Notes: generated from the sequence alone by a model not told the origin. A stretch of 64,000 nt of DNA from Botryllus schlosseri (GCA_051294905.1 CM119371.1:8682001-8746000); one strand, 5' to 3'; counted from the first letter of the stretch, positions 25,614-49,532 are shown. Program-made: numbers and translations.

Positions 25614-26111
25614 TGGGATTACACGCAACAAAAACTGAAATGCGACATTCACAAATATTCAGATTCGCAAAGTGGTTGACAACGTTTGATTAGCTAAAAG
25701 TACATCCACGAAAGCTGAACGTTTGCATTACAACTTGAAATTAGTATGAGAAATATTGGTTGGTGTATTGAGAAATATTCCAATATTGATCGACGACACT
25801 CTTTGTCTGATTAAAAGATTATGTCTCATTAAAAGAATATGTCTGATTAAAAGATTACTCTTTTACAGCAATAACGTTCAGAAAATATCTTTACATCCCT
25901 TACAACAATAACGTTCAAAAACAATGGATCAGCACTATTACAATCGTCAAGATCACATACAAATGTTTAATAACAATGGATCAGCACTATTACAATGGTC
26001 GAGATCACATACAAATATCGAATCACGTCAACAACAGTTCAGGTGCGTACAACACAGATAGCGCAATATGTCAGGCGCTCATTCACGATACTTTCGACGT
26101 CAGCCCACTTC

Positions 26112-29100
26112 CTACGGGCTACCATTGACCCGAAGCTCAGGGACCGTGTCGCGAGTAACATGCGTTAGAAGCCAAATGACCAATGCGATCATGAGAGGGG
26201 ATAAGCCAATCAACCCCAAGACAATACGCTTCTTCATCCTAGGCGATATCATTTCGTAGAGAGTGAAGCAGCATATCAGTCCCCAGAGTGTGAAGCAGCA
26301 TTCACCAACACACGTCCAACCAGGTCCATCATCGTTGATCATGTTGGGGTTAGCTCCCTCGTTATCACGGTTATCTTCTGGTAAATGGTCATCTGAAACA
26401 GTGACCCGGATGTTGGAAAACAGCAAGGTGGGGTCATTTCTACAGCGAGTCACCAGGCAAAATTCATAATTTGAATCTACTATCAGGATTATGAATTTAG
26501 CCAACACCACACATGCCATGAAGCCTATCAGAGAACTCGCGCGACACGAATGATCGACCCGAATATTAGTACCTACATATGTAGATTCAAAGTATTGGAT
26601 TCAATAATCGCATACCACACGCACGGAACCGCGCGTTCCAGCCGCCGTTATCAAAATGCACAAGATATTTTCACGTCCGATCAGTGTGTATGCAAGTCAA
26701 CGAATAAAAACGCTCCACAGTACAGGTAGTATCAACTTTTCTCGGTTCCCCGAAAGTCAGCATGTTTGCATTTCCTAATAACTGTCCCCAAGCACGTACA
26801 GTAGGCTATTTATCTCCCTGCGATTCTGGTAGCCGGCTGAAACTGGGCAGTCAGTTACCAGTATGAGATACCCTGGTTCCGAGTTCCATAGTCGATTCGA
26901 AGTATCAATTTAGCATTAAAACACCCCGAACAAATATTTCGAGCAACTTGGGAGTAAACGTTTGGCGTTCAGCCAAATCGCACAACTTACCTGATATCAG
27001 CCGAAACGGTCGGATATTCCAATGCACGCGATATCAACATCAATATTAGTCGAACTAGCGACCATCTACTTTAAAATCTGCCACACCGGTTGGACAGTCA
27101 TCGAAGAACACCACGGCGATGAAATTATTTTATGAATACCATTTACCATTGTGGCGACTAGTCGACGCCATTGCGCAGTCATCCTGTGAGCTTCCTGCTT
27201 CGTCTTTGATTGCCTTCTTGGCTTCGTCTTTGATCGTCTTCTTGGATAAAGTCTTGGATTTGACACCGTCCTCCAGAAAACCTGAATCATTGGGTTCCTC
27301 GTAGGGTCCAGACATTCCGTCTGTAACGATAGTAAAAGAAATACTATATTTACCGCCGTATGTTCAACGTTACCAATGTCGTATTCCTGGCATCCAGGCA
27401 AGGATATTCTGACGCTTTTGTGCGTGCACCAAGGGAAAATATCTGGCACACTTCGGGAAAATAGTGTATTCTCATCAGAAAATAGCTATCCGATATAGGA
27501 ACCTACCTCACGATTATACGGAAGTATAATGCGAACTATTTTACCACAACTGATGCTCGACAAATTAGAAGACGTCGAATAGAGCATGAAGGAAGGCGCG
27601 CACGTATGTAACGTAGGCAGGTCGGATTTACAACAAATGCTTTACGCGACCGCCATTTCCACAAATTAGTCAAAAGATTATAAGTAGGGCCATTCAAAGT
27701 CATTGTCATTCTTTTCCATGTCATTTTTTCTATGTATCAGTAAGTCGAACAATTTTAACGCAAAAACACGTCGTGAAACCAATTTTAAAGCAAAAACCAG
27801 ATCCCCACGAGGTATATTACGAAAGTTTTAGTCTTATAAAGTCATATTTTACTAGTTAGATCGTATACCAGCCTTTCAAGTAATAAGATCGTCTCTGGAG
27901 CACTCATCACCCATACTTGTTTTGATCGTCTCTGTGGAGCGCTCATTCTCCTTACTGAAGTCATTAATACGTCCAAATCGTACTACAAACACTATTTACA
28001 TTTCTAAAGTCGTTATACGTCCAAATCGTAACTTCAAACACTGTTTACATTCCACACTGCTACAACAGTGGTTTGAAATGAAAATGGATGTGTATTGCTG
28101 TTATGTTGCGTGTGTTTTAATATTTTAGTTCCATGAGTGGCGTTGTTCGCATGTAAAAATACATGATCTTCACATGCAAAAATACATCATTTTAACATGT
28201 AAAAATGCATGGAGTTTCACAGAAGTCATATAAAGTCATATTTTCCAAAAATTTAGTCATATTATCGATTTTTGAAGGTCTTACAAAATTTGCCCGAATT
28301 AATAGTATGAAAGATTGGACATGTAAAAGACAGACGAAAATGTCAATTGATAACGCTGATGACTAACTTTCAGTTATGGTATAAGTAAACATTATTTTTG
28401 TCACAAAGAAATGCTGTTCAGCCGCTGACAAGTCCAGCGAGATATTATATAGTCACACTGAGATCGCGGATTTCGAATTCTGTAGAAGTTCTATTTTCGT
28501 GAATCGCCTTTTTGGGTGTCGATGATCTTTTCTGTAAAATGTAGGCGGGTAATGGAATCCATTGGCATAAAACCACAGGATAATGGGTAAGTATTTCAGT
28601 AGATGGCCCTCTGCTTTCAGAAAGATTTTTAAATACGCAAGCAAACGAGCATACATACACTGGCGTGTCATTTCTTGGTCTTCATACCTCACGAGCTCAG
28701 GGATGAGAAATGACGAGGTAGCAACTTGGACTCAAGTCGCAAGTAATGACGTCGAAATGTCAGTGTCGACAATTTAACGGTATATTAGCAGACTTCACCC
28801 ATTGGATATGTGCCTCTGTATTAAGGAGGGAGCTAGTATACGCGCCTCTGCAGTAAGCACAGGTCAACATAAAATAGACTACCACGGCATGGACATCTGC
28901 CTATCAATGGCAAGCGTCAGAATGCAAACGAGGAGCGGCCAACAACTTCCTGAAAACGTTTGCGAAGATCTATAGCGTCACGGAGTTATTGACGACAATG
29001 ATCGACGTTGAAATCGTATATCGATATGATGTTGAACGTAACGACCACTCCCACCAGCAACATGCACCTACAATATCGCCGAAGATAAAAGATAAATTAC

Positions 29101-31700
29101 CGATAGTATCTAAATTACCGATAGTATCTTTCCTATTCTTCTCGGGCAGGTCTCCGTAAAAGACGTTCATATCATGCGGTCCTGAGTTGTTGTCCTTCGC
29201 AGATCCCACAGGCAGGCGTACGACTTTCTCATCGGTTTGGTTACGGGGTGATTCATCCAAAACCATCTCTATAAGAAGGCGTTTGAGCAATTTTAGCAAT
29301 TGTAACTTTCCTTGGGTGCTTGGCATATCCACGACTCAAAATGAGCTTGCATGAAATTTGACTACGCGCTATACAAATGAAATTGCTGGTCGAAACGGAA
29401 CGGGATTATCTATACCTACATACGATTTTTCGTGTTGTTGCGAAAATGGCATCTTTCAACATCGAACAACGTTAAACTATCGATGAATGATTCCCTGACG
29501 AATCAAACCTGTTACCAGTTATTCTACCGAACAACATATGCAACTAAAACTTTGCACCAATGCTGGAAATATATACTGAATGTCGTACCAAGATAGATGT
29601 CTGGATTTATGAAGGATCCGTCACCGGAGACTGGTCCCAGACTACCACAGTAAATCTTGATGGCAGATTGCTTCATGGAGCTCCCTGCTTCGTCGTTGAT
29701 TGCCTTCTTCAAACGGCTTTCGGATTTAACCTCGTCGTCCAGAAATCCTGAATCATTGGGTTCCTCGTAGGGACCAGAAATTCCGTCTGTAGCGATAGCA
29801 AAAGCGAGACCATTTACCAATGCATCTTGCAACGTTGGTAATGTGGTATTCCTTGCACCCAGACGAGGAGGAAGCTGTGTGTACTCGTACTTGGTGGACA
29901 ATCAACGTAAGACTATCGGCTCAATCCGAGCATTTGTGGATACACGCCTAGTGAAAATGGCGCATTCACGTCAGAAAATGGGTTCGGAAGCTACCTCACA
30001 TTTATACGGTGAGAAGTAGAAAGTAACACACATTTTAACCCAACTGATGCTTTGACAAATTAGAATGACCTAAGATTGAGTATGAAGGAACGTGGGCACG
30101 TATGAAGGTATGTATATTCACGTAGGACGGTTGGATTTACACGACACGCTTTACACTGCAGCAATATCCGCAAATTAGTCAAGAGAATACAAGTACCGAG
30201 GGATTGAATAAGTTCATGAACTCAAACCGTGCAGTTTAAGTAAGTATAACAATATTTTGAACATATAACGAAATGCCGTTCAGCCTCTGACAAGTCCAGC
30301 GAGATATTCTATTCGCTGAAATGTGATCGTGTCGCTTAAATATGAGCGTGTCATAGAATGGATTGGTATTAAACCAGAGGGTACTGTGAAAAGTATTTCA
30401 GTATATGGCCTGGTGCTTTCAGAAAATAGTTTCAAATACGCTGGCAAACGAGCATACATACAGCCCCGTGCCGTGTATTTCCCGTTTCAAATATGCTGGC
30501 AAACGAGCATACATACAGCCGCGTGTCGTGTATTTCCCGGTCTTCATATACCATACGATCTCAGGCATCACCTTTACCACGCGACATATTTATTATCGAT
30601 GGTGACGAAGTCGAAATAAACGATGTCGAAAACCAGTATCGACATTTTAAGGCTTACTGGGACACTTCACCCACCGGATATGTGTCTCTGCATGAAGGAA
30701 TATTAGACACCCGCCGCTGCAGGAAACTCCGGTCACCAAAATATAGACTACCACGGCATGGCAATATGCCTATCAATGCGTATCTGGAGCAAAGAGTCGT
30801 AATGCAAACGAAGAGCGGCCAACAACTTCCTAGAACCGTTTGCCAAGATCTAGCGCCACGGACATTGTAATTCTAGATGGAGATGGTATGGAACGTGACG
30901 ACAACTCCCACCACTAACATGCACTCTCAATTTCGCCTTAGAAAGAAAACTAAATTGGCGATACCATCTTTCTGATTCTTGTCAAGCAGATCTCCGTAAA
31001 ACACGTTCATACCCTGCGGTCCAGAGTTGTTGTCCTTCATAGATCCCGCAGGCAGGTGTACGATTTCCTCATCGGTTTGGTTACGGGGCGATTCATCCAA
31101 AAGCATCTCTGTGAAGCAAAGGTTTGTACGATTTCAGCAATCGCAACTTCGCGGATGGCTTGGCATATCCACGCCCCGAATAAATGTATGCATTAAATCT
31201 GAATACGCGCTTTGAAGGAAATTGCTAGTCCAAGAGATCGGGGTCATATATACATGATCTTTCGCGTAATTGCGAAAATGGAATCTTGCAACTATACGAC
31301 GACACCGGCAGTTGCTTGTTTGTGGTATTCATGGTGTTTGTCGACTACTATGGTCATTTACACCAGCAATTTTATTCCGTAACACCGGCATATCAGCCTA
31401 CATGATCGAATGGATATAGTGAAAGAACTGTTCAAGGGAGTTCAACTCTATTGGAATCCAGAAATAGCACGCGAAGTGGATAAGTCACAGTTCATGACAT
31501 CAGATATTCGACAGTGCAGACACCACGTTATTGTACCGAACAAGATCAACAAGTATAACGTTACACCCAGACTGGAAGTCTATTCCAAATGTCTCACCAT
31601 CATCGTTATCCGGATTATTGAAGGATCCGTCACCGGGGCCTTGTCCAAGATTACCAGGGTAAAGCTTGCCGGCAGTTTGCTTCTTGGAGCTGATTGACAT
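26112..31700 (-). CDS. Paralog 2: fused/internally duplicated member with exon order A-B-C/A-B'-C-D, two ITIM exons, ~349 aa
   Basis: A 31700-31598 (MSISSKKQTAGKLYPGNLGQGPGDGSFNNPDNDD, G|gtgaga). B 31108-30965 (EMLLDESPRNQTDEEIVHLPAGSMKDNNSGPQGMNVFYGDLLDKNQKD). Chimeric C/A 29786-29589 (DGISGPYEEPNDSGFLDD...DEAGSS|MKQSAIKIYCGSLGPVSGDGSFINPDIYL). B' 29268-29119 (...NVFYGDLPEKNRKDTI, shifted donor G|gtaatt). C 27320-27147. D 26392-26112 (Cys cluster, RMKKR, TM IVLGLIGLSPLMIALVIWLL). All internal exons are multiples of 3, phase 1, with no stops. Confidence 0.75.
27684..28295 (+). mobile_element. DNA transposon relic with hAT-like C-terminal fragment in intron of paralog 2
   Basis: Peptide SVERSFSLLKSLIRPNR (27930-27985), AAGTCAT subterminal repeats; absent from the equivalent intron of other copies. 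Confidence 0.5.
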
Positions 31701-32272
31701 TCCTTTTGCTCCTAACGGATTATCCACTACAATCGATACTTACTGTTAAAAATATGATCAGAACTTCAACTACGACCGGGGTTTTGACTCCCACGGTCAT
31801 AGCCTGCAAATATACACGTCACGATAACACATTTTCCAGCTCTTGATAACCGGAGCACCGCAAACCTGCTAAAAGAAGAATGTTAGTGGAATGCCAACAT
31901 CGATGGCAGTAGGCATATAGGAAACCAGACGGACATGGTTGATGATTAGAAGACGACCAATTAAACACTGATTACTGCAAGAGACAATCGCTGTTTTGCG
32001 ACGGTGATATTTCAATTAAACTCTCCATTGTCCTCTCCTAACCAAGGTATCGCTGTCTAGCGCCCACTCCTTGGTGGTCAACTGATATTTACGGTACAAC
32101 GATGAGATAACTGAATTCCGGGTACAATATCAATTGTAGTCAGACTCAAACAGCTAGAGTCTATGTTTCGGACAATTGAAATTATTACTGGGCTTTCATT
32201 TATTAAAATTATATTCAAGATAAACTTCAGAAGCCTAATATACAGATGCAATTTCTCATTAGGCCTATACAA

Positions 32273-32580
32273 TCATCATCATTGGTTTATTAGCAATTTT
32301 ATCAGTTCAATACACCACAAAAAATGCGATACAATGAATAGACAGGAAGATGTCGAAGCGACTTGGATTTGTCGATGGAATCAGACACCCACCTTGGCCT
32401 AGGCGATGTAAAGAGGAGGCATGCACACTGAATGAAAGTAAAGAAGACAGCATAGAAAAAGAAAGCGACAAGAATAGGGCGGCATGTCATGGGAAGCGAT
32501 ATCGATAGGTCAGTCGTGGTCCGGTAATATTGAGGATGGACTGTATTTATTTATTAGTAATTGCTTGTATTTCGACAAAT
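32273..32580 (-). mobile_element. 5'-truncated CR1/L2-clade LINE 3' end
   Basis: Near-identical to 62010-62315, with a (CAT)n tail. Confidence 0.75.
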
Positions 32581-34176
32581 GATCATACATGGGGCGATTG
32601 CTGTAACAATGTCATATATTGCGATTACGACTACGATTACAGTAAAATCTCACAGTGTTCGATTACTATTACTAACATGAATACATGGAAGAGTAATAAC
32701 GAACATTCACAATTAAACTTTTACGCCCCTTCGAACTCGCGACGGGCACATGTATTCAAAGATCTATTATTACCTGGTCCTTGGAGCACGTGAAAACAAT
32801 AAACTGTTACAAGTCCAGCTCCGGCTCCCTGACGACAAACACTCAGCAACTCAACTATCGTTTCAAATACATTCACAAACAAAACATTATATTCAATGAA
32901 CACGAAAAATTTATTTCTACACAGAGAAGTATTGAAATAACAATCGTAAGAAGATAAAGAAGTTACGATATTTCCTCTATCAAGTCTTCTTTCATAGTAG
33001 TAGACTAATAGAATCCGATGAAATAAATCAAACACGGAGATATTTTTAAAACAACTGGAGCAAGCTCCTGCTCCAAATGCATTGCAATTTGACGTATACC
33101 TCCGACTCCAGCTACATATCCAGTACAGATCTAAGTATGGTACTTTTTCAGCAATCAACTATAAACAATATATTACTTTGTAATCTATTTGAATCCCATG
33201 AATCCCACAACCCGTGAAAATAAGCACCTGAAAATTATTCGAATTACGATAAATGTACTATTGTAAAGTATGCTGTAATGAAAGCAATTTTCGAGACACG
33301 TCTCAGTTGACAATAATTTAAATATGCACAATATATTACACACACAGCGAATGCTATCAAGTATTTCGGTTGCATGAGTTCGCCACACCGTCTTTAGGGT
33401 GGGGTTCCCATATTTTCGTGACCCATATTCCAGACACTTTTTGGCGCCTACTGGCGGATTTTAAAATGAGGTATGAACACATGCGACGTCACAATAACAA
33501 TACTTTGCCTATCGACTGTATGTATACAGGAGGGGAATTTTAACATGGGTCGGTGATTCACCAACCTATTGCGCCATCGCTACAATATGTGTGTTTTGCA
33601 GCCCTGCTATAGTAGTTAGATGTAGATAGGTGGTTATGTGTTGCAGCCAGGACCGAAACAACACTTTTAAGCTAATTTCCGCCCCAAAAAACACTGGTCC
33701 GGAGCCCATCATAGGGTGATCGATGGATCTTCTAGTTGCTTACTATATGTATCTGGTTTCTATCTGCATCTCGTTATTAAATTTTGTGTATGAATTCTGT
33801 TAATAATACTCATTCTTCCATATATCGCACTATAAATATTTTATCCTCTCTCAGCTCACGTGATCAAAGTTAGCGGTAGGGCTGGTTCAGGTTTCGTATA
33901 ATATGTTTCCTTCCAATTTTCGTATTGACAAAATAACGATGGGATTATTTGAAATTAAAACCACGCATGAATGAATGAATGTGAAAACCAATGGTTGTTA
34001 AACGTAGTTTCGACCCATGACCCGGCTTCATAACGTAAAAGCTTTTCAATTTTGCATCCGCACCATTTCTGTTCTGTTCTTAGACACCATGAATCAGTGG
34101 TTCTTAACAATTTTTCCTGCAGTGCCCCTGCAGCACCCAATATTTAAAGGCGGCAGTAAAAACAAGGGGTAAGAGA

Positions 34177-35443
34177 CAGGGCCGTAACAGCACTTCGTCA
34201 CCCCCCCAAAAAAAACGTTGTTCTTGGGCGCCTCATATGGTGATAAACCGAAATTCTGGAGACCTCCGCCCCCCAGACCCCTCAGGCTGTACGCTATTCA
34301 ACGTTAGTTAACTGCTACATTGGGTGTCCATTTGTGCGTCAGCTTTTCTCGCCCAAATGCGCGAGGCGCGATCAATTTCTATAATTCATGACTGAATCGA
34401 TAAATATGATCGGTAATTGCAAATATATTGCAATCAAGCTTTATCCTCTCTCTGCTCACGTAATCTCATTTACCGGGAGAGCTGAGTGAGGTGTGTTTGA
34501 AAAGGTAGGACCCCTCAATAATAATTATACATCTCCGGGGGTATATCCGTCGGCAGGAACGGAACAGCACTTCGTCAGCCCCCCACCCCCACCCCATCAC
34601 GTTGTTTGCTTTTGCCACGAAATTATATATGTAATGATTAGCGAGCCAGCGCGAAGCGTGAAAATTTCGATAATTCATGATATAATCGGTCAATAAGATC
34701 GGGAATTACGTATATATTGCAATCAATTTATCGCCTTCTCTGCTCACGTAATCAGATTTACCGGTAGAGCTGAGTGAGGTGTCTTTGAAACTGTAGAGCC
34801 CGTAAATAATAATTGAACATCTTCGGGCGGGCGGACACGTTGGAATGACTTCGTTACATAATGTTATTTCGTGACCTCCTGTCTGCTATATCATAAAATA
34901 TAGAATCGCCAAACGTACTAAACTGAAAGATCACATGAGTTCAGATTGGTATGTCTTCAATGGCATATGATTTTTTCCTGTGGGATATGGTATTTGTCTT
35001 GTGAGGTTCAGATTGCCAAGGCGGGACCATTCGACGCCAGTCATTTAGACGCCTATATGATAATTAAACCTATTGTATATATTGGCTAACGAAGTTTTAG
35101 GTCAGCATAAGGGCAGCCTTTACGGCCAAGGTTTTCTCGCTGCCGATGGTCCGGGCAGACTTCTTGGAGTCGCATGTTACGTGACCTAAAACTTTATATG
35201 TCTTGGTGCGTTGTGGCGCGGTAATGGTCAACGACGATATGCCCATTTCTATAAATCTTGCGTTTTATTTCTTGGGGGAAGAGTGCCCAATAATCAAGAT
35301 ATTTGGCGACTTGAAATAGCGCCTGGCGCGAAAAATGTTTGAAAAAGTTGCATAATTTTCATAAAATACGAAATTATATTGGGCCTCCTTCGAGCTTGGG
35401 CCTCCCCAATTGAGGGGCTTGGGGTGCGGCAGTTACGGATCTG
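34177..35443 (+). mobile_element. hAT MITE, CAGGGCCGTAAC family
   Basis: TIR CAGGGCCGTAAC/GTTACGGATCTG, perfect TSD gtaagaga. Its internal modules recur inside 18730-20791, 22906-24384 and 60560-61388. Confidence 0.85.
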
Positions 35444-36584
35444 GTAAGAGATCAAAGTCCTGTCGGTCGCATCGGGTCGGGAGTTCGCGATTGGAAATAC
35501 CTTGAATCGCGCCCGAGGACCAGTTGACTAAGTAACACTTTGACAATTGTATGTGTCATATTCGTGATCAAATCAAGGTTGTTAAAACAACAATTGGAGA
35601 CGGGCTCATACCATCTGGCCGTTTAAATGTATTCCAAACGAAGCAAGCCATCTTATTCAACTTTCATGTCAGGTTGCGGGTCACAACACAAAACAGTATC
35701 ATACTTTATGATCCGATGAAGAAATATTTTGAAGATCAAATTTTGTAGCTCTCAAAAACAAGTTTATTAGGTTAATCATTTTGACCAAAAGCCTCGAAAC
35801 ATATTTAATGTACAAAGGGCGCATTTTGTTCGCCGCGGGCCTAAATGTACCTAGTTCGAAACCATATTTGTCAAATAATCCGACGTAGTGTGATGGTAGT
35901 ATTTTAACGCGGAATTGGTGATCTTAAAGTACGCGCAATTAATTTTACATCAATTATAATAAACCACTGAATACATGGAAACATGTTTCAAACATTGTCG
36001 GCATACATTTCGCTCGTAGCGCGATGAAAAATTTCGTGATTTGACAGATTTTGTCGATTGTTAAATTGCAATAAGAACTCGGGGATATATAGAACTTTTG
36101 TTCTACTATATACACATATACCCATACTTCACCCTCTACTGCGACATCGTTTTACTTCAGCGCCCCCATACCACCCCCTGAGCTCAGCGCCCCCCATATC
36201 GCCCCATGAACGTTACACTGCTTTATATCCGATATTGTCGCATGTCATGCCATGTCAAAGTAATCGAAATTCATGGGTTAGTGAGTACAAAAAAAAAACA
36301 TTTTAAAAATTGTTTAGCTTTGCGATCGGGGTTTCACTTTTGATGTACTTAATTTTGTGGCATTCAGAATACCAAACGAATTCCTAAATTTATTTGTAAA
36401 ACCGAGACCTAGAGGATGACTATGTGTTGATTTGACTTGTAATTACGCGTAACAAACCATTCACATCTTTGCGACAGCAAATGTCATGAGCCAATAAGAC
36501 TATAGAGTGCGTCTTCCTCTCTGCAGTTATTTTGCCATCATCTGCCAACTAATTTTATTGGTTTAATTGTGATGTTACGGATTT

Positions 36585-36682
36585 CTGTCACAATCATGTT
36601 GCATGGTTTTGTTCTGTCGTCACAATCATGTTGCATGGTTTTGTTCTGTCGTCACAATCATGTTGCATGGTTTTGTTCTGTC
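36585..36682. repeat. 31-bp tandem repeat x~3 (GTCACAATCATGTTGCATGGTTTTGTTCTGTC-like)
   Basis: Directly visible; a single related copy occurs at ~25170-25210 in the paralog 2 unit. Confidence 0.85.
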
Positions 36683-37074
36683 AAAGCATTGTTGATGCAT
36701 AGTTCAATTTGCGCGCGAGTGTTTTTTCGTAATCCATTAGATAAACAATGTAGTTGATACGGTTATGCGACTCATCCGGATATTTGGGGTTCCGCGAAGC
36801 AAGCCATATAGATTAGCGTCGGTGCTATACAGGTCAGTTAGTAATAACAGAGAAACGTCGCTCTTCGTGAAATGCGTTTTCAATAATGTATCAGTCAAAA
36901 TTTCGCTCATGAAAAACTTGATTCAAATATTTTGTACCACCAGGCGCAGTCGTGTTATAGGACTGCATTTCAAATCCAATCTTCTGCACAGCTGTTTCTG
37001 CACAGCTGTGTGTCAACCCGAATACGTCACATCACGACATTTCATAACAAACGCCATGAATACACAACTGCACC

Positions 37075-37080
37075 TTTATT
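37075..37080 (-). terminator. Polyadenylation signal (AATAAA) of paralog 3
   Basis: Same conserved context as 25608 and 53745. Confidence 0.6.
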
Positions 37081-37649
37081 GGAAATACACGCCACAAAAA
37101 CTGACATCGACAGTGAAAAATATTCAGATTCACAAAGTGGTCGGCAATGTTTGATTAGCTAAAAGTACATCCGCGAGAGCAAGATCGTTTGCATTACAAC
37201 TTGGGAGATTGCTGTTTGAGAAATATTCCGATATTGATCGACGACACTCTGTCAGACTGATCAAAAATGTCGTTAAAATACAATCTTTACAATTGAGCAT
37301 TACAACTTGGGAATTTGGTGTTTGAAAAATATTCCGATAATAATCGACGACACTCTGTCAAGTGATCAAAAATGTCGTTCATATACAATCATTACAATTA
37401 TGATGGTTGAGATCACGCACAAATATTAAATTACGTGTAAAATAATCCACAGAAGGAAATTGACGCCAATATTTCAGACTGATCAAAAATCACGTTCAAA
37501 AACAATGTATCCGGACAATCATCAGAAATACTCAATTATTACAATGGTCGAGATCACATACAAATATTGAATTACGTCAAAAACAGTTCAGGTGCGTACA
37601 ACACAGATAGCGCATTATGTCCAGGCGCTCATTCACGATACCTTCGACG

Positions 37650-40600
37650 TCAGCCTCTTCCTTCGGGCTTGTACTGACCTGATCCAACTCCCAGAGTTTG
37701 ATTGGGCAAGCTCGTTGAATCCGGGTCGGATTGATGAGGACCGCGCAATAGAAGCCACACGATCAATCCGATCACGAAAACGAATGATCCTACAAACGCC
37801 GCCACAATGCACCTCACCTTCCTAGGCGATGCGCAGAGTGCGAAGCAGCATTCATCAACACACGTGCCATCGGGTTCATCATTGTTGAGCAAGTCGGGAT
37901 CAGTTTCCTCGCTATGACGGTCATCTTCTGGAAAGTAGTCATCTGAAATAATAACCAGAATGTTGGAAATCAGTTGAACTACAGCGGGTCCCAAGGCTGA
38001 AATTATAATTTCAATCTAGTAACACCACGCATGCCTATCCCGTCTTCCCTACATCTCTATAGATTCTACGCATATATCTGTTTTGAGACTAGGATTATAT
38101 AATCTCATATCACACGACGCCGCGCATCTCAGCTGCCGTTAACAAGGTGCATAACATACTATCACGACCCATTCAATACGTCTGCAAATCCCCGAATAAA
38201 AACGTTCCAATGTACATGTAGGAATAACTCCCTGCGATCCCCGAAACTCGGCATGTTCAGTCCTCGAAAAACAACTGTCCACAGTATATGTAATATTAAC
38301 TCTGCGATCCCTGAAACCGGGCAGGGAATTACCAGTTTTGGATACCTTGGTTCGGAGTGCCATAGTCAATATTATTGCGGTTTCGAAAGCGTGTCAGTCT
38401 TCTTTACACGCGATATCGATTTAGTGATACAACACCTCGAACATAGTTTGATCAACTTAGAGTCAACGTTTGACACCAGACTGATGATGCGACCCGCAAC
38501 ATAGACGAGATGGGCATAGGCGTACGACAGGCCTGGTTGAGTGCGGCCCGCGGGCCGAATCCGATCCGCGGAGCTATTCTGTGCGGCCTGCGAAAGGTTG
38601 CTTGAAATTGAAAATATAGAACCTACTTTTTAATGTTGCTGCGTGGACTGAAACCATAGGATGTATAAACTGAGCCGAAAGTTCGTTTACTATCAAGTCT
38701 GTTCATTAACATACCGCGATTACGCAGGCTTACGTACCTCACGTGCCTAATCCTGATTCAAAGTGAAGTCAATGTAGCAAATTATGCCGTTACAATTAAA
38801 GTCACAAGTCCCCGAACCTTTTTTGTTGCCATTGCCACATTACGAATTACACGGCCTGCGTTTCAAATTGTTACGTGATGTTGTTCCAAATCCCTAACAA
38901 GTCAATCACTGCCCGTGATTTCTATGAGTATATCACCACCCATAAACGATGTAAAAAAAAAGAAAGCCGAAATTGGAAATTCAAACATTGTTCGGAGCAC
39001 TAAATATTTGATTACTACCAGTCTTTTTAGTAGTTAGTGCCAAGCACGTCGCCGTGTTCAAGGAAGTATTATTTAAGTCGCTTCTACGACTAAAACACGA
39101 AGACATAGGGCCTACACTCGATCAATGGACAGCAAATTTTGGAATACCTGCAAGCTTGGCTTAACAACAAGTACATTGCAGCAAGCTGCACACTTCTCAT
39201 AATTCAGCCACCAAGACAAAAGGCTTTACAGGATCCCCAGGACCGTAACTGTGGCACCCAAACCCCCAATTGGGGAGGGGAATCTCGAAGGGCGCCCAAA
39301 ATTGTTTCGTGAACGACCAAAAATTAGAGAGTAGTTTTTGAATATTTATGCAACTTCTTACAAATTTTTCTCGGGCTAGGCGCGATTTCGAGATCAATGA
39401 TTATAGAATTGGGTATTTCGGCGTAAGCCATTACCGCGCCATGACATACCAAGATATATCAAGTGCAGGCCAACACGGTATTCCGAGAAGGCACGGCAAT
39501 TGCAACTGCTGATCAAATTAAACAAGTAAAAGCTCGACAGCGAAAAAGCCTTGGCCCAAAAGGACTGTCCTCATGTAGACCGAAAACCACGATCTCCAAT
39601 GGTCCGTAGGCATTATTTTCAGGTGACGAAATATCAATTGGGAATCGTGCATGTGCGATTTCTAGTTTAGTATACGCTTTGACAATTCCAATATATTTCT
39701 CATTTCAGACGTGAGGTTACGAAATAACAACATCTAACGAAGTAATTATACCTACAGGTCCTCTCGAATATTTCCATGACAGCACCTCACTCTGCTCTAG
39801 CGGTAAAACTGAGTACGAGGGCATAAAGAGGTTTAAAAAATATAGCTATATATATATGACATTCCCAATATTATTGACCTATTGAATCCTGAAACATGGA
39901 AAAATTCCGCGTTTCGCGCGGTTCGGGCATAAAACGTTGCCAAATAGTGTATATAAGAAATCTCGCTCAGGAGTAATGTTAAAACATGCATCATGATGGG
40001 TCTGGTCTGACGGCGAAGCTTTCAGTTCAGAAATAAAACCAATACGCTGGAGAAGACAGCTAAAATTTATCGCCCCGCCAACATATTTTCTGCTTCTCAT
40101 TTGACCCGCGGAGAAAAATAATACCTCTGGCGTACAGAAAAGAAGTTAGGTCGCTACCTCATAATCAGCCGAACCAGCAGGATATTCAATAAACATGATA
40201 TGTACTTCCATAACTAGCCGGGCATCCAGTGATAAACATGGTGATGAACTTAATTTTATAAATACCATTTACCATTTACTATAGTCGATGCCATTTCGCA
40301 GTCATCTTGGGATCTCCCTGCTTCGTCGTTGATTGTCTTCTTCAATATGGATTTGTATTTAACCGCGTCGTCCAGAAATCCTGAATCATTTGGTTTCTCG
40401 TAGGGTCCAGACATTCCGTCTGTAATGGTAGCAGAAGCAAGGCCATTAACCTTTGCATCTTTCAACAACGATAATGTGGTATTCCTGGTACCCAGACGAG
40501 GAGGAAGTAAGACTATAGAGGTTTAATCCGAGGATTTATGGATACACCAAGGGATAAATTTCCGACACACTTACTGAAAATGGTGCATTCACGTCAGAAA

Positions 40601-43600
40601 ATGGGTATACGATATCGGAAGCTACCTCACAATTATACGGGAAATAGAAAGCAAACACATTTTAACCGAACTGATGCTTTGACAAAGTGAATGGCCAAAA
40701 ATTGAGTATGAAGGAACGTGGGGAACGTATGAAGAAATATTCACGTAGGCCGGTTGGATTTACACCGAATGCTCTACATTGCATTCATATCCAAAAATTA
40801 GTCAAAATAATACAAGTACGAGGGATTGATCAAGTTCAAGGTAAAAATGTCAATTGATGATGTTGATGAACTCAAACCATGCAGCCGCTGACAAGCCCAG
40901 GGAGATACTCTTTCCGCTGGAATGGGAGAGTGTCATAGAATCGGTTGGTATAAAACCAGAGGGTAATGTGAAAAGCATTTCAGTATATGTCCTGGTGCTT
41001 TCAAAAAGATTTTCAAATACGCTAACAGTCGAGCATACATACACCCGCGTGTCGTGTATTTCCCCGTCTTCATAACATACGATCCCAGGGATGAGAATGA
41101 GTCAGGTATCAACTTTACTACGCGACGTATTTATTATCGATTGTGATGAAGTCAAAATGGAACGACGCCGAAAGCCAGTATCGAGAATTTAACGGCTTAC
41201 TAGGACACCTCACCCACCGGATATGTATATCTGCATTAGCGAACATTAGATACCCGCCGCTGCAGGAAACTCATCTCATCAAATACAGACTACCGCGGAA
41301 TGGCGATCTGCCTATAAATGCTTATCTGTAGCAAAGAGTCATAATGCAAACGAAGAGCGGCCAACAACTTCCTAAAACCGTTTGCCAATATCTAGCATCA
41401 CGGATATTGTAATTGTAGATGGAGATTGAGATTGATATGGAACGTAACTACCACTCCTACAACTAACATACACTTAAAATTTCGCCGCAGAGAAAAAAAT
41501 ATAAATTGAGGATACCATCTTTCTGATTCTTGTCCATCAGATCTCCGTAAAACACGTTCATTTCCTTCGGTCCAGAGTTGTTGTCCTTCATAGATCCCAC
41601 AGGCAGGTGTACGACTTTCTCATCGGTTTGTTTACGGGGCGATCCACCCAAAAGCATCTCTGCAAAGTAAATGTTTGTACGATTTCAGCAATCGCAACTT
41701 TGCGGATGGCTTGGCATATCCACGCCTCGAATAAATGTATGCATGAAATCTGAATACGCGCTTTGAAGGAAATTGCTAGTCCAAAGAGAGCGGGGTTATA
41801 TATACATGATCTTTCGCGTAATTGCAAAAATGGAATCTTGCAACTATACGACGACACCGGCAGTTGTTTGTTTGTGATATTCGTGTTGTTTGTCGACTGC
41901 TATGTTTATCAACACCATGCCGATATCCTTCATTTTTATTCTGTACACTCTTAAAAACTGGGCCCACCTTTAAAGGTGTTTCAAAAAAAACCTTCAAAAG
42001 AGGAGGGAAATTTTCTACCTTATCTCACCTGGTGGTTATTTTCCCACCTCATCATAAGATGGGCAACTTTCCACCTTGTCCTATCCGGATTCGGCTTCAT
42101 CCTACCCGGATATCCTCGAGGTACAGCATATAAGCACACTTTAAGCTTTCACAAAACACTAAATCACCTTCATTCCAATGCCTTTATTTGCAAATTAGTC
42201 ACGAATGTGATCCAGTTTGGCATAAGCTGCAGTACTGATGTCTTTTACACCTGGCAAACGCGCCAGAAAAACTGACATGACAGTCAGAAACTGCATTTCG
42301 AAGATCCAACGAATTTCTAGCATCACTGAAAATGCCTCATGGAAGCTCTCGATATTCTTCACCTTTTCAACATCAAACCAGACGGTCCACTCTTTCTTCA
42401 TTGTATCGTAGCAAATTGTAGGACACGCGGATGTGGGTGTCTTAACGAAATATATTATTATGTGAAAGAAGCATCAGGTCAAACATACGCTTAACACACA
42501 CACACAGACACACACTGATGTTATTTCAGTAATCAGCTTATGAAATATACCGGCAGCAGGGCACTGCGGATCCTATTTTCAGTCAACATATGATATCAAA
42601 TAGCAAATAGGCATATGTATATGCGGACTTGGCCAGGTGGAAGTGATGACCATTTTGAGTCATCAGCTAATGTGAACAGTAACCTTTGTGGCTCTCAATT
42701 TTTTGTCGGTGCGGACCCTTTTCTTAACCATCAAGGCAAGGCATCCGTACAGACACCCCTTAAGTTTTAGTTCAAATCATGCTCAATAATAGTGCAACCG
42801 TCATCCACCTCTTGTCAATAGTCCTTTTTTTGCAAGTTGCAAAGGTACATCTTGGCGAGTTTGAAGTAGCAACCTTGGATAACTGCTGATATCTACTTTT
42901 TGAAACTACTTGAGTACTTTGCAGCCCTTCATTTCCTACTTGGTTGAAGTAGCTTTGACATGGATTTGAAATCACTACTTCTACACTATATACTAACCTA
43001 GAAATATCCGAAGTGATGCTTTACCCGAGCTAAGAAAATCACAAATTATATTATCATTCAGGTTAAAAATTTAGAGGTCTGCAAACACCATAAAGATGTG
43101 CTTCACGGACCCAGAGTTAGCACTGCGGGTTGTGGGACCGAGCTGAAAAGGGAGCATGGGCTTGTAACACCGGTTTTAGGTTTGCTCCTCACTAAAAAAG
43201 GTTGAATACACCACATTGAGAGAAATGTATTGATACTATAATTCAATAATTGATATTATAAAACGTAATTTTCAGTATTTAAAATTGTCTCCGAATCTCC
43301 ACGACTCGACTACAGTTGAAGCTCGATTTTGTGCCAGTAGTGGAATAGTTTTATCCATCCCAAATTTCAAGCTAACAGGTATATTTATAAAAATCCGTAC
43401 CTGTTGAACCTGGAAGAAATTGCCACATCCTTCATGAAAAATTGTAGGTATAGAAACAATCCGGTCTAGATTTTGAGATGCTGTAAAACAAAATATATTA
43501 TAAGTCCAAGTTGATCACTGAATACATACAGGTCAACATCAACTCATTACAATACAGCAGAGTGGAGTGCGTCAACGCGTCGCGTCGTAATGACGGATTA

Positions 43601-46600
43601 GTACAGATTAAAAACAGTGCGAAAATTGATGCCGTGCAATTGCAACATGACTGAAGAACGCTTTATAGGCTTATATCATGAGAGGCAATTAATAGATGGA
43701 AATTACCTACTCAATCAATACAAATATTTGAAGAGATCAATGCTTATGTCAAAATCAACAGCTTTATTACAACAAAGGTAATAGATATAATAGCAGAAAG
43801 AGAAAAACATACCAATCACAATCCATCATTTTGTCTTCGGGACATCGATGTCAGCTTCTGCGCTTCATCCTATCAATCATATTTTCAACCAATTCCGCGT
43901 TGAGGGGAAATCATGCTCATCTCGTCTTCAGGGACAGAAGACGAAACCGTTTTCTGCAAAGCAGTCGAAATTTGAAATATGCAGTGAAACAGAATAAAAA
44001 ATTCATTGGGACAATAAATTTGTGAAACCGAACCTCAAATTATTTTTTCAACAGGTGAAGCAGCAAAAATGAGCAGATTTGAATTTATAGGCTTTAGTTT
44101 GCCTTGGTGAGCCAGTCGAACTTTTCATGCTACTAGTAGGGCTGGGCAAAATCGAGTACCTGAGTGATTCAATTCTGAATCACGTAATATGCTTCGAGTC
44201 GGGTCAAGTAATCAAGTATCACTCATTATGACGTCATAACAGAATGTAAGATGTCAAAGTTAAAATATGTACCGTTTATGCCACCACCAAGAATTTAATG
44301 CCTTTTATCAATCACATATAAAATGCCCTGGTATTTTACGACTTCGCCAATTTCATTCGACTTGGTGACAATGCTGTTGGATGATCATGACTTCGGAAAT
44401 ATGCTACGTCCAGTAACCTTGGTAGCTTTTGTACTATAGGTTTCGTAAGCTACGATACCGCCAATCAAGGTTTAAGGCTTTAACTGTGAAAATTAGTATC
44501 GAAACTATAATTCTCGGGTATAAATTAACTTTCAGTGGAGAGAAGCGTAATATCAGTACCGGTACTAGAAAACATCGTATTTTACTACTCGACTCGAATC
44601 ATAAAAATTAATACTAGATTCAGGTTTGGGTACTCGAATCATTGTGCCCAGCCCCAGCTACAAGTGATAGTCAGCCTGCCAGTCGCCTAATTGTGCTGCG
44701 TACACCAATTCCCTACTGGATATACTATATAGCATGGTTTCATATTAGAAAATGACCATAAATTGCAGTTACTTCTAAAATTTTCAAACAATTATTTCAA
44801 CTGAACTGAAACAAAGCTCACTCTGACTTAAGCATGTAAATTTGAAAAGGCAAGTTTGAAGCATGAAAATTCATTAGTCCATTATCGTCTCACCTTCATT
44901 TCTTCACGTGGCGTAATGTAACCTCCATTCTCCAATATGGCGGCCGATCGTCAGACAGCCGACAACGACAGGAACAGTTGAGCAACTATATACGGGTTTA
45001 TGCTAGCGAGAACAGAATGCGTTCATACCGCATTCCTTAACAGCAAGAAGCGGTTCATATTTAAAAACGTACAGCTATTGCCTGTGTAGTAAGAATAAGC
45101 ACAACTCATAAGAATTCGCTTCATAATGAACTTCAAGAGGAGATGACACGCGCCGCCAACGCGGTCTCTCCGATCTGTCTGCTTCGAGGTTCAAACGCTG
45201 CTAAATTAAAGCGTAACCGACATGGCTGATCAGTCAGCATGAGATATTAGAATCTTCGCTTTTTGTGTTCGAATTGCTACTTAGTACACTAAATAAATAT
45301 TATAACTATCATTATTGAGTACAGACTAGAAATTGACTGAATAGGATAGTAAGATGTAAGTCGAACCATAAGCAAATTGGTGTTTATGAAACTCGATGGT
45401 TGAACGGGGGTTCCCTTGAGAATGTGGTTCCCGCGGAAACTCAGCTGACTTCACGGAATCGCCGCGCAGGTAACTGATGCGTTGCATTAATTTAGTATAT
45501 ATTAATCGATATTATTTTCGTAGGTAAATGCATTCATTGCTATGGATCAAGCCCAGGCTGGTTCCGGGAATATATGAATACGTTTAAACCGCTGATACCA
45601 GTCACGTCTTTGAAATGCGTAAGCAACATAATGAAGTTTCTGTGCAGTGATGTGATGATGAATGCTGAACGAGCAGTGGTACCACTCCTAGTGTTTTAAC
45701 ACTAGATCTAGTGTTTTTTCGGTCTTCCTAGTGTTCTAGTGTTTTTTTTTGCATAATTTTGCTAATCTAGTGTTTTTTCTTCAATTGTGCAAACAATATT
45801 CTAACATTAGACTACTAAATTATACGCTAAATTTATCGCTAATAAGGTGATTTGGTGTCTCTGGCTGTGTTTGTTTTCAACAATTCTATGTTGTGGTGCA
45901 GTAACAAGCAATTATCACATAACAGGGTGGGCTGTGAATCAGTACTTATGAGCGAAAGTCTTGGGAAAAAGAGCGGTTTCGCTCTGATGGTCTATCGTTT
46001 CTTGTTGAATTCACTCTGCAGATTCGGGCAAGAATTCTATTTGCCGAGGACAGCATACTTTTGTAGTTGAGTGTATTGAATCCGTTAACAGTCTTATATC
46101 AACACAAAGAAAAGTAAAATCAATCATTCCTCTAACTGCGCAATTTCTCTTTGTGATATTATTTGATGAACTTGATGATTTGTCGGAAAAATGTGCTGAT
46201 TTGGCAAATTCGCACAATGAGCTGCAGGTTATCAGTCAACATAATTTCGGCAAAAATTGAAATCTGTGCAAAATGGATTCGGTGAATCAAAATTCCCATT
46301 ACTGGGGAAGCTCATCACGAATCTCTTGGCATTGCCACATTCCACTGCATGTGTGGAAATGAAGTATACTGCACATGGACACCTCCCCATTGTTTGGTTG
46401 AAGATGTACGGTAGTGAGCAAGATTGCACACAAAACATACTTATGTGTGATGTGTACAATCGAAAAATAATTTTATGGTACCGCACAATTCGAAAGCGAC
46501 AATATTTGATTTTTTCTTACTCTATTGAATTTTTTATTAATTTTTGTTGTCTAACCATGCAGTATATCATACATATGTATCCAATTCATGTGCGTTGCAC

Positions 46601-49532
46601 TTCTTATCTATGGATTTGTACCTTCGTCATCATGATTACTTGGCAACGGCAAATTTTTTACCAATCTAGTGTTTTTTTCGCCAATCTAGTGTTTTTTCAC
46701 GACATAATCTTGTGTTTTTCCAAGAACCTAGAGTGGCAACACTGTGAACGAGGACGACGGCAGGTTCCTGCAAGCGAGCTGCAGAAGTGTTTGTTTTCGA
46801 ATTCAGTTGTTCGTCAGAGATTGATTCTTTATACTGCCTGTTCATCAGCCATTAGGTTACTTGATACCAGTTGTCAGGATGACAGAAGAGCGAGGTGTCG
46901 GTGTTGTTGCAGAGGTACCGTAACTGGTGGTTCTGATTTCTGCTGTCATTTGGAATGATTGTGTGGTGAGGTAATGTATGAATATATGCTGGCATGGTCA
47001 ATTAGTCATGTTTATGATTTCGGAAACACACTGGAACTAAAGTACTACCGGTACTCTCTGATTGATTGCGCACATCATCATGCTGATTATATAATAATAT
47101 TTATATTTCCTATTCATTGCTGTGCTGCTTTATCAAGTGATAATTTTGATTGATTCAATAATTTTGTTTGATACATGGCTGTTCTGTGACTCCTTACTTC
47201 TTGTCAAAATTTAGTATCATTCTTCAGGAGTATTATGGTAGGAGGCCTAGTGGTCTCGGCCAAGTCACAGTAACACAATATTTAATTTTGTTGTTGGCAT
47301 CAGCAATGCATCATGGCATGCCTGGGTTACTTATGTTTACCCTCTCCGTAAAGCAACTAATATTGCTTTCTCTATTCTCGCAGTCTTTTTATCTTATTTT
47401 CCCTGCCTAGTTCCTACCACTTGCATTTATATTCAAAATATATACCGTACCTAAGATTGATTTGAAATTTAATATATATAAACCCTTTTAAGGCATTTGT
47501 TGATACTAATTTTTTGATTATAATGTTCATATCTGTTTTGCAGGCTATATTTATGTGAAATAGCACTAAAGCAATAGCAGGATTTTTTTCGGATCCTAAT
47601 TTTGTTACTCAGCTGTCGGACTCCGAAATCCTATTTGACTGTTGGATCAGGACGGATACAGATTCCCCAAATCTGGAATCCACCCATCTCTGAATTCAAC
47701 TCATCGTGCTTTCACTTCCTCTTTTGCTTTTGGCCTCATTGGCGGACGGACTTCTAGTAGCCTAAAGTCTCTGCAGCTTTGTTTAATCGTGTGTGATCAA
47801 GTATAGACGGAGGTTTTTACAATGGCGAGCACGCTAAAACCGTTACTTCATTAATTTGGCTGCAATTCTCAAGATTCCTGGACAGTAACGGTATGCTGAA
47901 AGATTGGCAGAAATTCGATTACGGCATTGGCTATCTGAACCGATTGAAGAAGCAGTTTTGCATCAATATGAGCAGTTTGAAGACTTGACTGGCTGCTTCA
48001 CTTCATAATAACTGTTTCACTGGCTGAACTGATGTAACTTGACTGGCTGCTTCACTGCATAATAACTGTTTCACTGGCGGAACTGATGTAAGCGCGCGTG
48101 GAAGGGATGGAGCTTGTGTCTCTCCCGGTCCGGTAATTCTCCCCGTGATGTGGCGCGGCGTTGTTAGGGTTTTAGTTTAGGGAATTTGTTCATTGATGTT
48201 AGTTTGGGGCTAGTGTTCTGCTAATGTGGTGCGGTCATGCCCGTGTTTGCGGTTTTGTTGATGATTTTAACTTTTTTATGGTATTTTGTGAGACTGCTGC
48301 TATAGGCACTTTTCAAGTTCGATCGGAATAGTGTAGCAGCTGTGTTCTATACTGTTCCTTACGTCAGTTGTAGTATCATCGCATCGTGCTTTCACTTCCG
48401 CTTTTGCTACTGACCGCTTCGGCGGACGGACGTGTAATAAAGTCTCTTCAGCATTTTTGAATCGTGTGTGATCATGATCAACTACAGATGGAGGTCTTTT
48501 ACAATTATGCATTCGCATTCAGATTCATTATCAGGTGATAAAAAATGTGGTTGAAGGCGAGATCGATAAGTCAGGCTGTAGTCCTGTAATCATGATCTGA
48601 CTATGGTATTGATTCAGTATAAATTGTGTGTATTTTGATTTGAATGTGGACCTGTTCCATAACTGTCGGAGCTGTGCAGATTTTCATAAATTATAAAAAA
48701 TAACTGATTTCGAAAAACCTGGAAATCGAATTTAATTACACTGAAATTCCGGACATTTACGGGCGTATGTAGCAACCCAAACATTAATAAATTTCCGTTG
48801 CATGACCAATCAGCTAAGCAGAACTCGTCAACTTACGCGTACTTCATCTGACGCCATGTGTTCGGACTGCCGTCCCAAGTCATAGGGGGCTCGTTCCGCA
48901 GCATTTGTAATATTTCACGGGTTTACCAAAAATAACGTTACGACAGCTTTTGTATATTTGTTGACGACGACGCAGTATATGATCTCGCGCGAAAATACAT
49001 CTTCCACCTCCCAAAACCCTCCTTATAAAGTGATGTATCGTATATCACTTTATAGGAGAGTTTTGGGAGGTGGAAGATCTATTGTCGGAGGTGGGAAGAC
49101 GTACTTCACCGAGGTGTATAGCATGTTCCTACCTCTCGTGAAAGGAGGAATTATCGTTTCCACCTCAATTTTAGCAAAAAACCCACCTTTATTTTTTACA
49201 GTGTAACACCGGCAGTTAACATTCTACATATCAGCGTACACGATCGAATGGATCGAGTGAAAGAACTGTTCGAGGGGAGACCAACTCTGAATAGCACGCG
49301 ATGTGGGTAATCCACAGTTCGTGACATCACACTTTCGACAGTGCAGACAACAAGTTATTCTACCGAATAAGATCAACGAGTAGCCTATAACTTTACACCC
49401 AGACTGGAAATCTATACTGAATGTCTCACCATCATCGTTATCTGGATTATTGAAGGATCCGTCACCGGTGCCTTGTCCAAGATTACCACGGTAAAGCTTG
49501 CCGGCAGAATGCTCCGTGGAGCTGGTTGACAT
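37650..49532 (-). CDS. Paralog 3 of the ITIM-like type-II membrane protein family, 4 coding exons, 228 aa; intron 1 expanded by a 7.3-kb transposon
   Basis: A 49532-49430 (MSTSSTEHSAGKLYRGNLGQGTGDGSFNNPDNDD). B 41659-41516 (...EMNVFYGDLMDKNQKD). C 40419-40273 (DGMSGPYEKPNDSGFLDDAVKYKSILKKTINDEAGRSQDDCEMASTIVN). D 37942-37650 (DDYFPEDD...TCVDECCFALCASPRKVRCIVAAFVGSFVFVIGLIVWLLLRG...NQTLGVGSGQYKPEGRG*). Canonical cag/gt sites, all phase 1. Confidence 0.8.
38528..40129 (+). mobile_element. hAT non-autonomous element in intron C-D of paralog 3
   Basis: Left end CAGGCCTGG..GCGGCCCGCGGGCC, degenerate right end, TSD gcgtacga/gcgtacag; absent from the same intron of paralogs 2 and 4. Confidence 0.7.
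44137..44656 (-). mobile_element. TAGGGCTGGGC-family MITE nested in the CACTA-like element
   Basis: TIRs and TSD gctactag/gctacaag. Confidence 0.85.
45674..46744 (+). mobile_element. Internally deleted hAT element with dimerisation-domain remnant, nested in the CACTA-like element
   Basis: TIR CAGTGGTACCACTC/GAGTGGCAACACTG, perfect TSD tgaacgag, CTAGTGTTTT subterminal repeats, peptide KFPLLGKLITNLLALPHSTACVE. Confidence 0.9.

Follow-up and report, generated by a model that had tools for sequence, protein, structure and literature searches.

The question raised by this locus is what a six-residue tyrosine motif, V-F-Y-G-D-L, might do in a group of small tandem genes of Botryllus schlosseri. 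The motif lies in exon B of the gene that we call P2, at positions 30987-31004 on the minus strand of a 64,000-nucleotide stretch of genomic DNA (GCA_051294905.1 CM119371.1:8682001-8746000), and was placed by pattern search and exon alignment; this whole stretch is referred to below as the window, and all coordinates are relative to it. An initial annotation of the window had labeled the motif as the core of an immunoreceptor tyrosine-based inhibitory motif (ITIM) and had claimed purifying selection on it. From the sequence analysis described here we take it to be a tyrosine motif conserved within a family of small predicted membrane proteins that is new and lineage-restricted, and any function that we assign to it is a proposal. 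The function we favor, with a probability of roughly 35%, is that of an adaptor-type phosphotyrosine docking site, carried by what would be membrane adaptor proteins rather than ligand-binding inhibitory receptors.

We searched the window for the pattern GTN NTT TAY GGA GAY CTG, allowing at most one mismatch, and used 100 dinucleotide shuffles as the control. Five matches were obtained, all on the minus strand and all with no mismatch, at 12215-12232, 29147-29164, 30987-31004, 41538-41555, and 57928-57945; the shuffles gave an expectation of 0.01 matches, and in none of the 100 were there five or more. The five copies that had been reported were therefore all recovered, and the codons given for them proved to be exact: GTC GTT TAC GGA GAC CTG in gene P1; GTG TTT TAC GGA GAT CTG and GTC TTT TAC GGA GAC CTG in the two B exons of P2 (P2-B and P2-B', respectively); GTG TTT TAC GGA GAT CTG in P3; and GTC TTT TAT GGA GAT CTG in P4. 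In all five exon B copies V is encoded by GTC or GTG, Y by TAC or TAT, and D by GAC or GAT, while the G (GGA) and L (CTG) codons are invariant; at the x position of V-x-Y-G-D-L, P1 has V and the other four copies have F. The codon alignment thus bore out the claim that V, Y, and D vary only silently and that only the x residue is replaced. To cover the whole assembly (495 Mb, 219 contigs), we used a 30-place degenerate pattern made of the motif followed by x-[DE]-K-N, with the reversed pattern as control. The forward pattern matched the five window sites and no others, and the reversed pattern gave no matches. Searches of the assembly at both the DNA and protein levels with P2 exon B, P1 exon B, and one last exon revealed no further paralogues outside the window. 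As all of the genome-wide matches fall inside the window, the family is confined to this locus.

Self-comparison of the window showed four repeated units on the minus strand, and block alignments combined with a splice-site search gave one common exon model for them. This model predicts four tandem genes, P1 to P4, each with an exon A (containing the start), B (containing the motif), C, and T (the last). Exon A has an ATG start, about 34 codons, and a donor G/GTRAGA, where the slash marks the exon boundary; exon B, in phase 1, is 144 nucleotides long in all five copies and has 47 whole codons, numbers 35-40 of which make up the motif; exon C has about 49-58 codons; and exon T has a stop codon at its end. 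Every exon junction is in phase 1, length differences among paralogous exons are multiples of three, and the spliced frames are open without internal stops for 224 (P1), 349 (P2), 228 (P3), and 219 (P4) amino acids. Exon B is less diverged than the introns that flank it; between P2-B and P4, for example, the divergence is 0.097 in the exon versus 0.303 and 0.391 in the introns. The ATG of exon A is likely to be the start codon, because in P2 an in-frame stop (TAA) precedes it by 13 codons and in P4 there is a one-nucleotide gap just 5' of it.

The gene carrying the main motif departs from the common order. P2 begins with exon A (31598-31700; ATG plus 34 codons, donor G/GTGAGA, the upstream TAA being the one just mentioned), located by alignment and splice search, and exon B (30965-31108; 144 nucleotides, phase 1-1, acceptor cacAG/, donor G/GTATCG), located by alignment. 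These are followed by an in-frame exon of 198 nucleotides, phase 1-1, at 29589-29786 (alignment and splice search), which we call C'A' since its first part resembles exon C and its second part resembles exon A from codon 4 onward, the two being joined at a shared AGCTCC. Then come a second motif-bearing exon, B' (29119-29268, by alignment; motif at 29147-29164), whose donor is shifted 6 nucleotides downstream with phase 1 kept; exon C (27147-27320, by alignment and splice search), which includes G-P-Y-E-E-P; and the last exon (26112-26392, by alignment and hydropathy), which encodes an acidic stretch, a Cys cluster, a membrane helix, a short tail, and the stop. The structure of C'A' makes the predicted P2 gene an in-frame fusion of two neighboring units, A-B-C'A'-B'-C-T, with a predicted protein containing two motifs, and five B exons are found in four genes because P2 fused two units. 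The fusion arose through a deletion that removed the DNA between the interior of one exon C and codon 4 in the exon A of the neighboring gene, and it doubled the tyrosine motif; a Cys-rich stretch is duplicated in P2 as well.

Four bulk RNA read runs with the same species label were aligned to positions 25901-45900, a segment that leaves P1, P4, and exon A of P3 outside. In run X4, five reads with three different starts joined 41516 to 40419, and the skipped sequence has the ends CT..AC, which are GT..AG on the minus strand. This joint coincides exactly with the predicted junction between P3 exon B (41516-41659; motif at 41538-41555) and P3 exon C (40273-40419), both placed by alignment and RNA, so that the last base of the former and the first base of the latter are confirmed; no such joint was present in the other three runs. 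For the P2 junctions and the P3 junction from exon C to the last exon (37650-37942, by alignment and hydropathy), no joints were listed in the four runs over this segment, and those junctions are predicted. Two X4 reads joining 30965 to 40417 were not accepted as support for P2, as their exon B part is too short to separate P2-B from P3. Exons B and C of the family were covered in X4 only, low-depth coverage of the last-exon and 3' regions being found in X8 and X10 as well; the depth over family exons was below 2 everywhere. From the open frames, the phase-1 junctions, the contrast between exon and intron divergence, and the P3 exons B and C joined in RNA, we conclude that P1 to P4 are real coding genes. 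A polymorphism was also seen in the RNA, C to A at 41535 in nine of nine X4 reads, which changes Met to Ile at the P3 codon directly after the motif; among the differences listed, none lies inside the motif.

Within exon B, 13 of the 47 columns are invariant, and five of these are V35, Y37, G38, D39, and L40; of all six-codon windows in the exon, codons 35-40 have the smallest number of replacement changes. In the four close copies, three silent changes and no replacements fall within the motif versus five and 22, respectively, in the remaining codons of exon B (Fisher p=0.014, a post hoc test), and when all five copies are included the motif has three silent and one replacement versus 18 and 52 (p=0.066). 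All three key-codon changes are silent, each assignable to a single branch in the tree of paralogues. In five of six close-copy pairs, replacement divergence (dN) in the rest of exon B equals or exceeds silent divergence (dS), e.g., 0.109 versus 0.042 between P2-B and P3. Exons A and T have dN/dS values of 0.8-2.3 among P2 to P4, and exon C alone is clearly constrained, with values of about 0.3 in most pairs. The motif, with silent changes only, therefore stands out against the replacement-rich remainder of a fast-changing protein. The remainder of P1 exon B had been described as strongly diverged, and it is: P1 and P2-B share 34% identity over the 47 codons, while the other three copies have 77-81%. 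As for purifying selection, what holds is that the motif is the least-changed stretch and that the Fisher test favors it; however, the motif was chosen after looking, the sample consists of five copies, the scan-corrected p is about 0.07-0.11, and a gene-conversion tract is possible in P1. Constraint on the motif is likely but, with five copies, not proven. The conservation test could not be extended to a larger sample, since the searches gave no additional paralogue from the genome and no homologue from the protein collections.

The predicted proteins place the motif in a particular setting. In all four models the N-terminus is hydrophilic (mean Kyte-Doolittle value of the first 20 residues, -0.54 to -0.90), and we therefore assigned no signal peptide. 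Each protein has a single hydrophobic peak, with a 19-residue mean of 2.46-2.96, after which there are 18-33 residues. In P1, P2, and P3 the 15-residue flank on the N-terminal side of this helix is more positive than the 15-residue flank on its C-terminal side, and three of the four C-terminal tails contain an N-x-[ST] sequon. Hydropathy, flanking charges, and sequons together suggest that the N-terminus is probably inside the cell and the motif-bearing tail cytosolic. This N-terminal tail is about 175 residues long in P1, P3, and P4, acidic in P2 to P4, and probably disordered, and the motif lies about 100 residues before the helix. Shortly before the helix, on the predicted cytosolic side, three of the four genes (P2 to P4) encode a Cys cluster, C-[VI]-[DG]-E-C-C. 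Palmitoylated adaptors carry a juxtamembrane Cys motif at a similar position. The P1 last exon is without the cluster and has a Lys within its hydrophobic stretch. We infer that these are single-pass membrane proteins, type II or tail-anchored-like, with almost nothing outside the cell. By hydropathy they have the two features of tail-anchored proteins, namely no signal peptide and a single helix near the C-terminus, and 33 residues after the helix is the upper edge of the usual definition.

We propose the following role for a conserved tyrosine short linear motif in the long acidic N-terminal cytosolic tail of a small single-pass membrane protein. A Src-type tyrosine kinase would phosphorylate the motif tyrosine; V-x-pY-G-D-L would then dock an SH2 protein, for example, the SH2-SH2-phosphatase of this genome; and the P1 to P4 proteins would, as adaptors, recruit an enzyme of this kind to the membrane. 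At -2 the V is retained despite a silent change in its codon, which is what is needed for an ITIM-type SH2 site, and neither the G at +1 nor the D at +2 varies. Src-type kinases are known from the peptide-library literature to prefer peptides of the shape of F-Y-G-D-L. The same shape is present in a Src substrate peptide, ...I-Y-G-E-F..., used in a published study (PMC7298416). The genome contains 61 SH2 matches and 153 tyrosine-phosphatase matches, and the domain order SH2-SH2-phosphatase occurs in one gene, at 7.275-7.282 Mb of contig C14. Tyrosine-phosphatase domains are greatly expanded in tandem arrays on contigs C4, C6, C8, and C12, and SH2 matches are clustered at 12.98-13.22 Mb of contig C5 and at 27.53-27.62 Mb of contig C10. 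With respect to the ITIM label, the pattern [IVLS]-x-Y-x-x-[LVI] is present in five of five exon B copies, and that part of the label stands; the predicted proteins have no ligand-binding ectodomain, however, and are not classical ITIM receptors.

Several results weigh against a docking site. Phosphorylation and SH2 binding, and with them the adaptor role, are read from a pattern. The tail has a single invariant tyrosine, fewer than the several carried by known adaptors. Conservation extends beyond any ITIM consensus, to G at +1, D at +2, K at +6, and N at +7, so the partner may differ from the one proposed. Y-G-D-L fits a YxxL sorting signal and the core of an LC3-interaction site equally well. 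The flanking-charge rule is ambiguous for P4, and the topology as a whole is predicted. Expression in the four bulk runs was very low, exon B of P2 and P3 being covered only in X4 and at a depth below 1. Finally, the scan-corrected shuffles were not significant: five invariant columns in a window of six were reached in 2257 of 20,000 shuffles, and as few replacement changes in some six-codon window in 1419 of 20,000.

Nearly as likely as phosphotyrosine docking is that the motif serves in sorting, with unphosphorylated Y-G-D-L binding the mu subunit of an adaptor protein (AP) complex and directing endocytosis or endosomal or lysosomal targeting. The sequence agrees with Y-x-x-[LIMFV], and the tail around it is predicted to lie in the cytosol. 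For a protein in which just 18-33 residues extend past the membrane, the need for a signal of location is plainer than the need for an inhibitory one. The overall build also resembles that of IFITM proteins, which are encoded by tandem, fast-evolving small genes; in these proteins the cytosolic N-terminal tail contains a single tyrosine, Cys residues are located close to the membrane, and the C-terminal tail is very short. In IFITM3 the N-terminal Y-E-M-L is a sorting signal. A sorting signal, however, leaves unexplained the constancy of V at -2, where the codon has changed silently, and that of G at +1, and we found no sequence relation to CD225/IFITM, the last exons having no Pfam match at E values up to 1.

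Unlikely is the reading that the motif has no specific function. In that case its invariance would come from the small number of copies, from constraint on the exon as a whole, and from local gene conversion between paralogues, and the ITIM-like pattern would have arisen by chance. The shuffles described above show how readily the observed clustering is reached, and a rough estimate from residue frequencies indicated that the right residues at -2 and +3 would occur by chance at about 6 of 100 invariant tyrosines. A block wider than the motif is kept in P1: between P1 and P2-B', dS and dN are 0.355 and 0.155 in codons 32-47 versus 1.145 and 0.527 in codons 1-31, and this joint drop of about threefold is consistent with a short gene-conversion tract. 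Low silent divergence of exons A and B relative to exon C and the introns likewise suggests homogenization of the 5' exons: among P2 to P4 silent divergence is 0.04-0.15 in exons A and B, 0.15-0.69 in exon C, and about 0.15-0.4 in the introns for most pairs, and the dN/dS of exons A and B alongside this low silent divergence is about 1-2. Local gene conversion or a constraint at the DNA level could be behind these values. On the other side, the three silent differences within the motif fit the paralogue tree without conflict, which argues against recent homogenization among the close copies; three of three key-codon changes are silent whereas replacements make up 22 of the 27 changes elsewhere in exon B; and it is codons 35-40 that form the lowest-replacement window of exon B.

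The docking proposal can also be drawn out into a bolder form, in which the proteins would be palmitoylated orphan adaptors, tail-anchored and of reversed topology, their single Src-type site would act as an ITIM read by an SHP-type phosphatase, and the P2 fusion would be recent and would have doubled the motif in the manner of tandem ITIMs for the two SH2 domains of SHP. We regard this combination as improbable; if true, it would mean that inhibitory phosphotyrosine signaling is built here on a scaffold with no relationship to the receptors and adaptors already known.

Less probable still is that V-x-Y-G-D-L belongs to some other class of linear motif, either the core of an LC3/Atg8-interaction site ([WFY]-x-x-[LIV]) on a tail-anchored organelle protein or a site for a partner that reads V-x-Y-G-D-L-x-[DE]-K-N. 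Several selective-autophagy receptors are tail-anchored organelle proteins with LC3/Atg8-interaction cores, Y-G-D-L fits such a core, and the P1 to P4 proteins are tail-anchored-like with an acidic, probably disordered tail; K at +6 and N at +7 are conserved and are needed by no tyrosine-motif consensus. However, the acidic residues that usually stand directly before the aromatic residue are absent, M/L-N/S-V-F/V being found there instead, and the cellular location rests on prediction. An N-x-x-Y site of the phosphotyrosine-binding (PTB) type and a half immunoreceptor tyrosine-based activation motif (hemITAM) were dismissed, as the N is S in P1 and no acidic triplet precedes the tyrosine, respectively.

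The two remaining genes follow the common exon order. In P4, exon A (58459-58561) and exon C (55251-55397) were placed by alignment, exon B (57906-58049; motif at 57928-57945) by pattern search and alignment, and the last exon (54330-54595) by alignment and hydropathy. In P1, exon A (12800-12899, by alignment) has a 3-nucleotide deletion relative to the other copies, exon B (12193-12336, by pattern search and alignment) carries V-V-Y-G-D-L at 12215-12232, a segment resembling exon C (10910-11098, by splice search) has a tentative acceptor and a donor G/GTTAGT, and the last exon (10315-10556) was placed by alignment and hydropathy. All of these lie on the minus strand, as does the exon A aligned at 49430-49532, which was assigned to P3 by order only. 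Between it and P3 exon B is another spliced gene, a minus-strand transcript at 41950-45300 with introns at 42441-43400, 43481-43812, and 43949/43956-44896, a depth of about 40 in X10, and expression far above that of the family genes. The membership of the 49.4-kb exon A in P3 is therefore questionable. The last-exon frame of this transcript (42198-42473) had no Pfam match. Elsewhere in the window, a repeat at 32272-32576 and 62009-62314, present in two copies that are 95% identical, had an RNA depth of about 60 with many loose read ends, and is probably transcribed from copies elsewhere. Open frames at 2122-3200 on the plus strand gave weak matches to THAP (E 0.0075) and to a TNP-like RNase H (E 0.027), both under the Pfam cut-offs, and may be a transposase remnant.

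Searches for relatives of the family were negative within the collections covered. Sixteen open frames, 11 of them from family exons, were scanned against Pfam, and none of the 16 gave a match at the cut-off; for the last exons of all four genes there was no match to CD225 or to any other Pfam family at E values up to 1. Against longer proteins, exon B gave three word-sharing candidates and the fused exon C'A' 19, none of which reached an E value of up to 1. A profile of the four last exons, compared with 1.84 billion representatives, found one protein at E<=0.001 (E 2e-5, 628 amino acids, seven stretches), which we took to be spurious as a homologue; the match covers profile positions 61-85, i.e., the membrane helix. 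In the ESM Atlas the best score for the P3 last exon was 0.80, within the noise range, with SLC3A2_N (0.79) and CLLAC (0.76) below it. No printed description of a YGDL tyrosine signal or of a tail-anchored ITIM was found among the papers listed by the one literature collection searched. By these searches the predicted family is an orphan, lineage-restricted and without known relatives.

If the docking site works, an inhibitory-type tyrosine motif would exist without an ectodomain, in reversed orientation and without relatives, in an invertebrate-type genome rich in SH2 domains and phosphatases, and the picture of phosphotyrosine wiring outside the vertebrates would be widened. If the motif is instead a sorting signal or the product of chance, the genes would be an ordinary fast-evolving, lineage-specific tandem family, and a caution on naming ITIMs from a six-residue pattern.

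Three known systems can be compared with P1 to P4. Type II ITIM receptors of vertebrate natural killer and B cells, such as Ly49, NKG2A, CD72, and DCIR, have in common with the predicted proteins an N-terminal cytosolic tail with [IV]-x-Y-x-x-[LV], a single helix, and an N-terminus inside the cell; these receptors, however, have a large C-type lectin ectodomain, whereas P1 to P4 have 18-33 residues after the helix, no detected domain, and no sequence similarity to them. An extracellular ligand-binding domain (immunoglobulin, C-type lectin, or similar), which defines an ITIM receptor, is lacking in P1 to P4. The palmitoylated transmembrane adaptors LAT, PAG/Cbp, SIT, LIME, and NTAL have a tiny outer part, cytosolic Cys residues next to the membrane, a long acidic disordered tail, and SH2-docking tyrosines, and SIT carries an ITIM that binds SHP-2. 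Of these features P1 to P4 have the predicted short outer part, the Cys cluster in three of four genes, a long acidic and probably disordered tail, and one invariant tyrosine, whereas proteins of the LAT/PAG/SIT type have several conserved tyrosines; we found no sequence similarity between the two groups. The orientation differs as well, since in the LAT/PAG/SIT type the N-terminus is outside and the tail follows the helix, whereas in four of four models of P1 to P4 the tail precedes it. With the IFITM/CD225 proteins they share, besides the gene arrangement and tail described above, a C-terminal helix, beyond which the outer tail is very short; the IFITM cysteines are palmitoylated, and the Y-E-M-L sorting signal is phosphorylated as well. 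P1 to P4 differ from IFITM in having no CD225 match, no second hydrophobic segment apart from the duplicated Cys-rich stretch of P2, and a tail of about 175 residues. P1 to P4 are thus members of none of these systems, being set apart by the ectodomain, the orientation, and the CD225 domain, respectively. By analogy, they would seem most like type II ITIM receptors without the lectin domain, or palmitoylated adaptors turned around.

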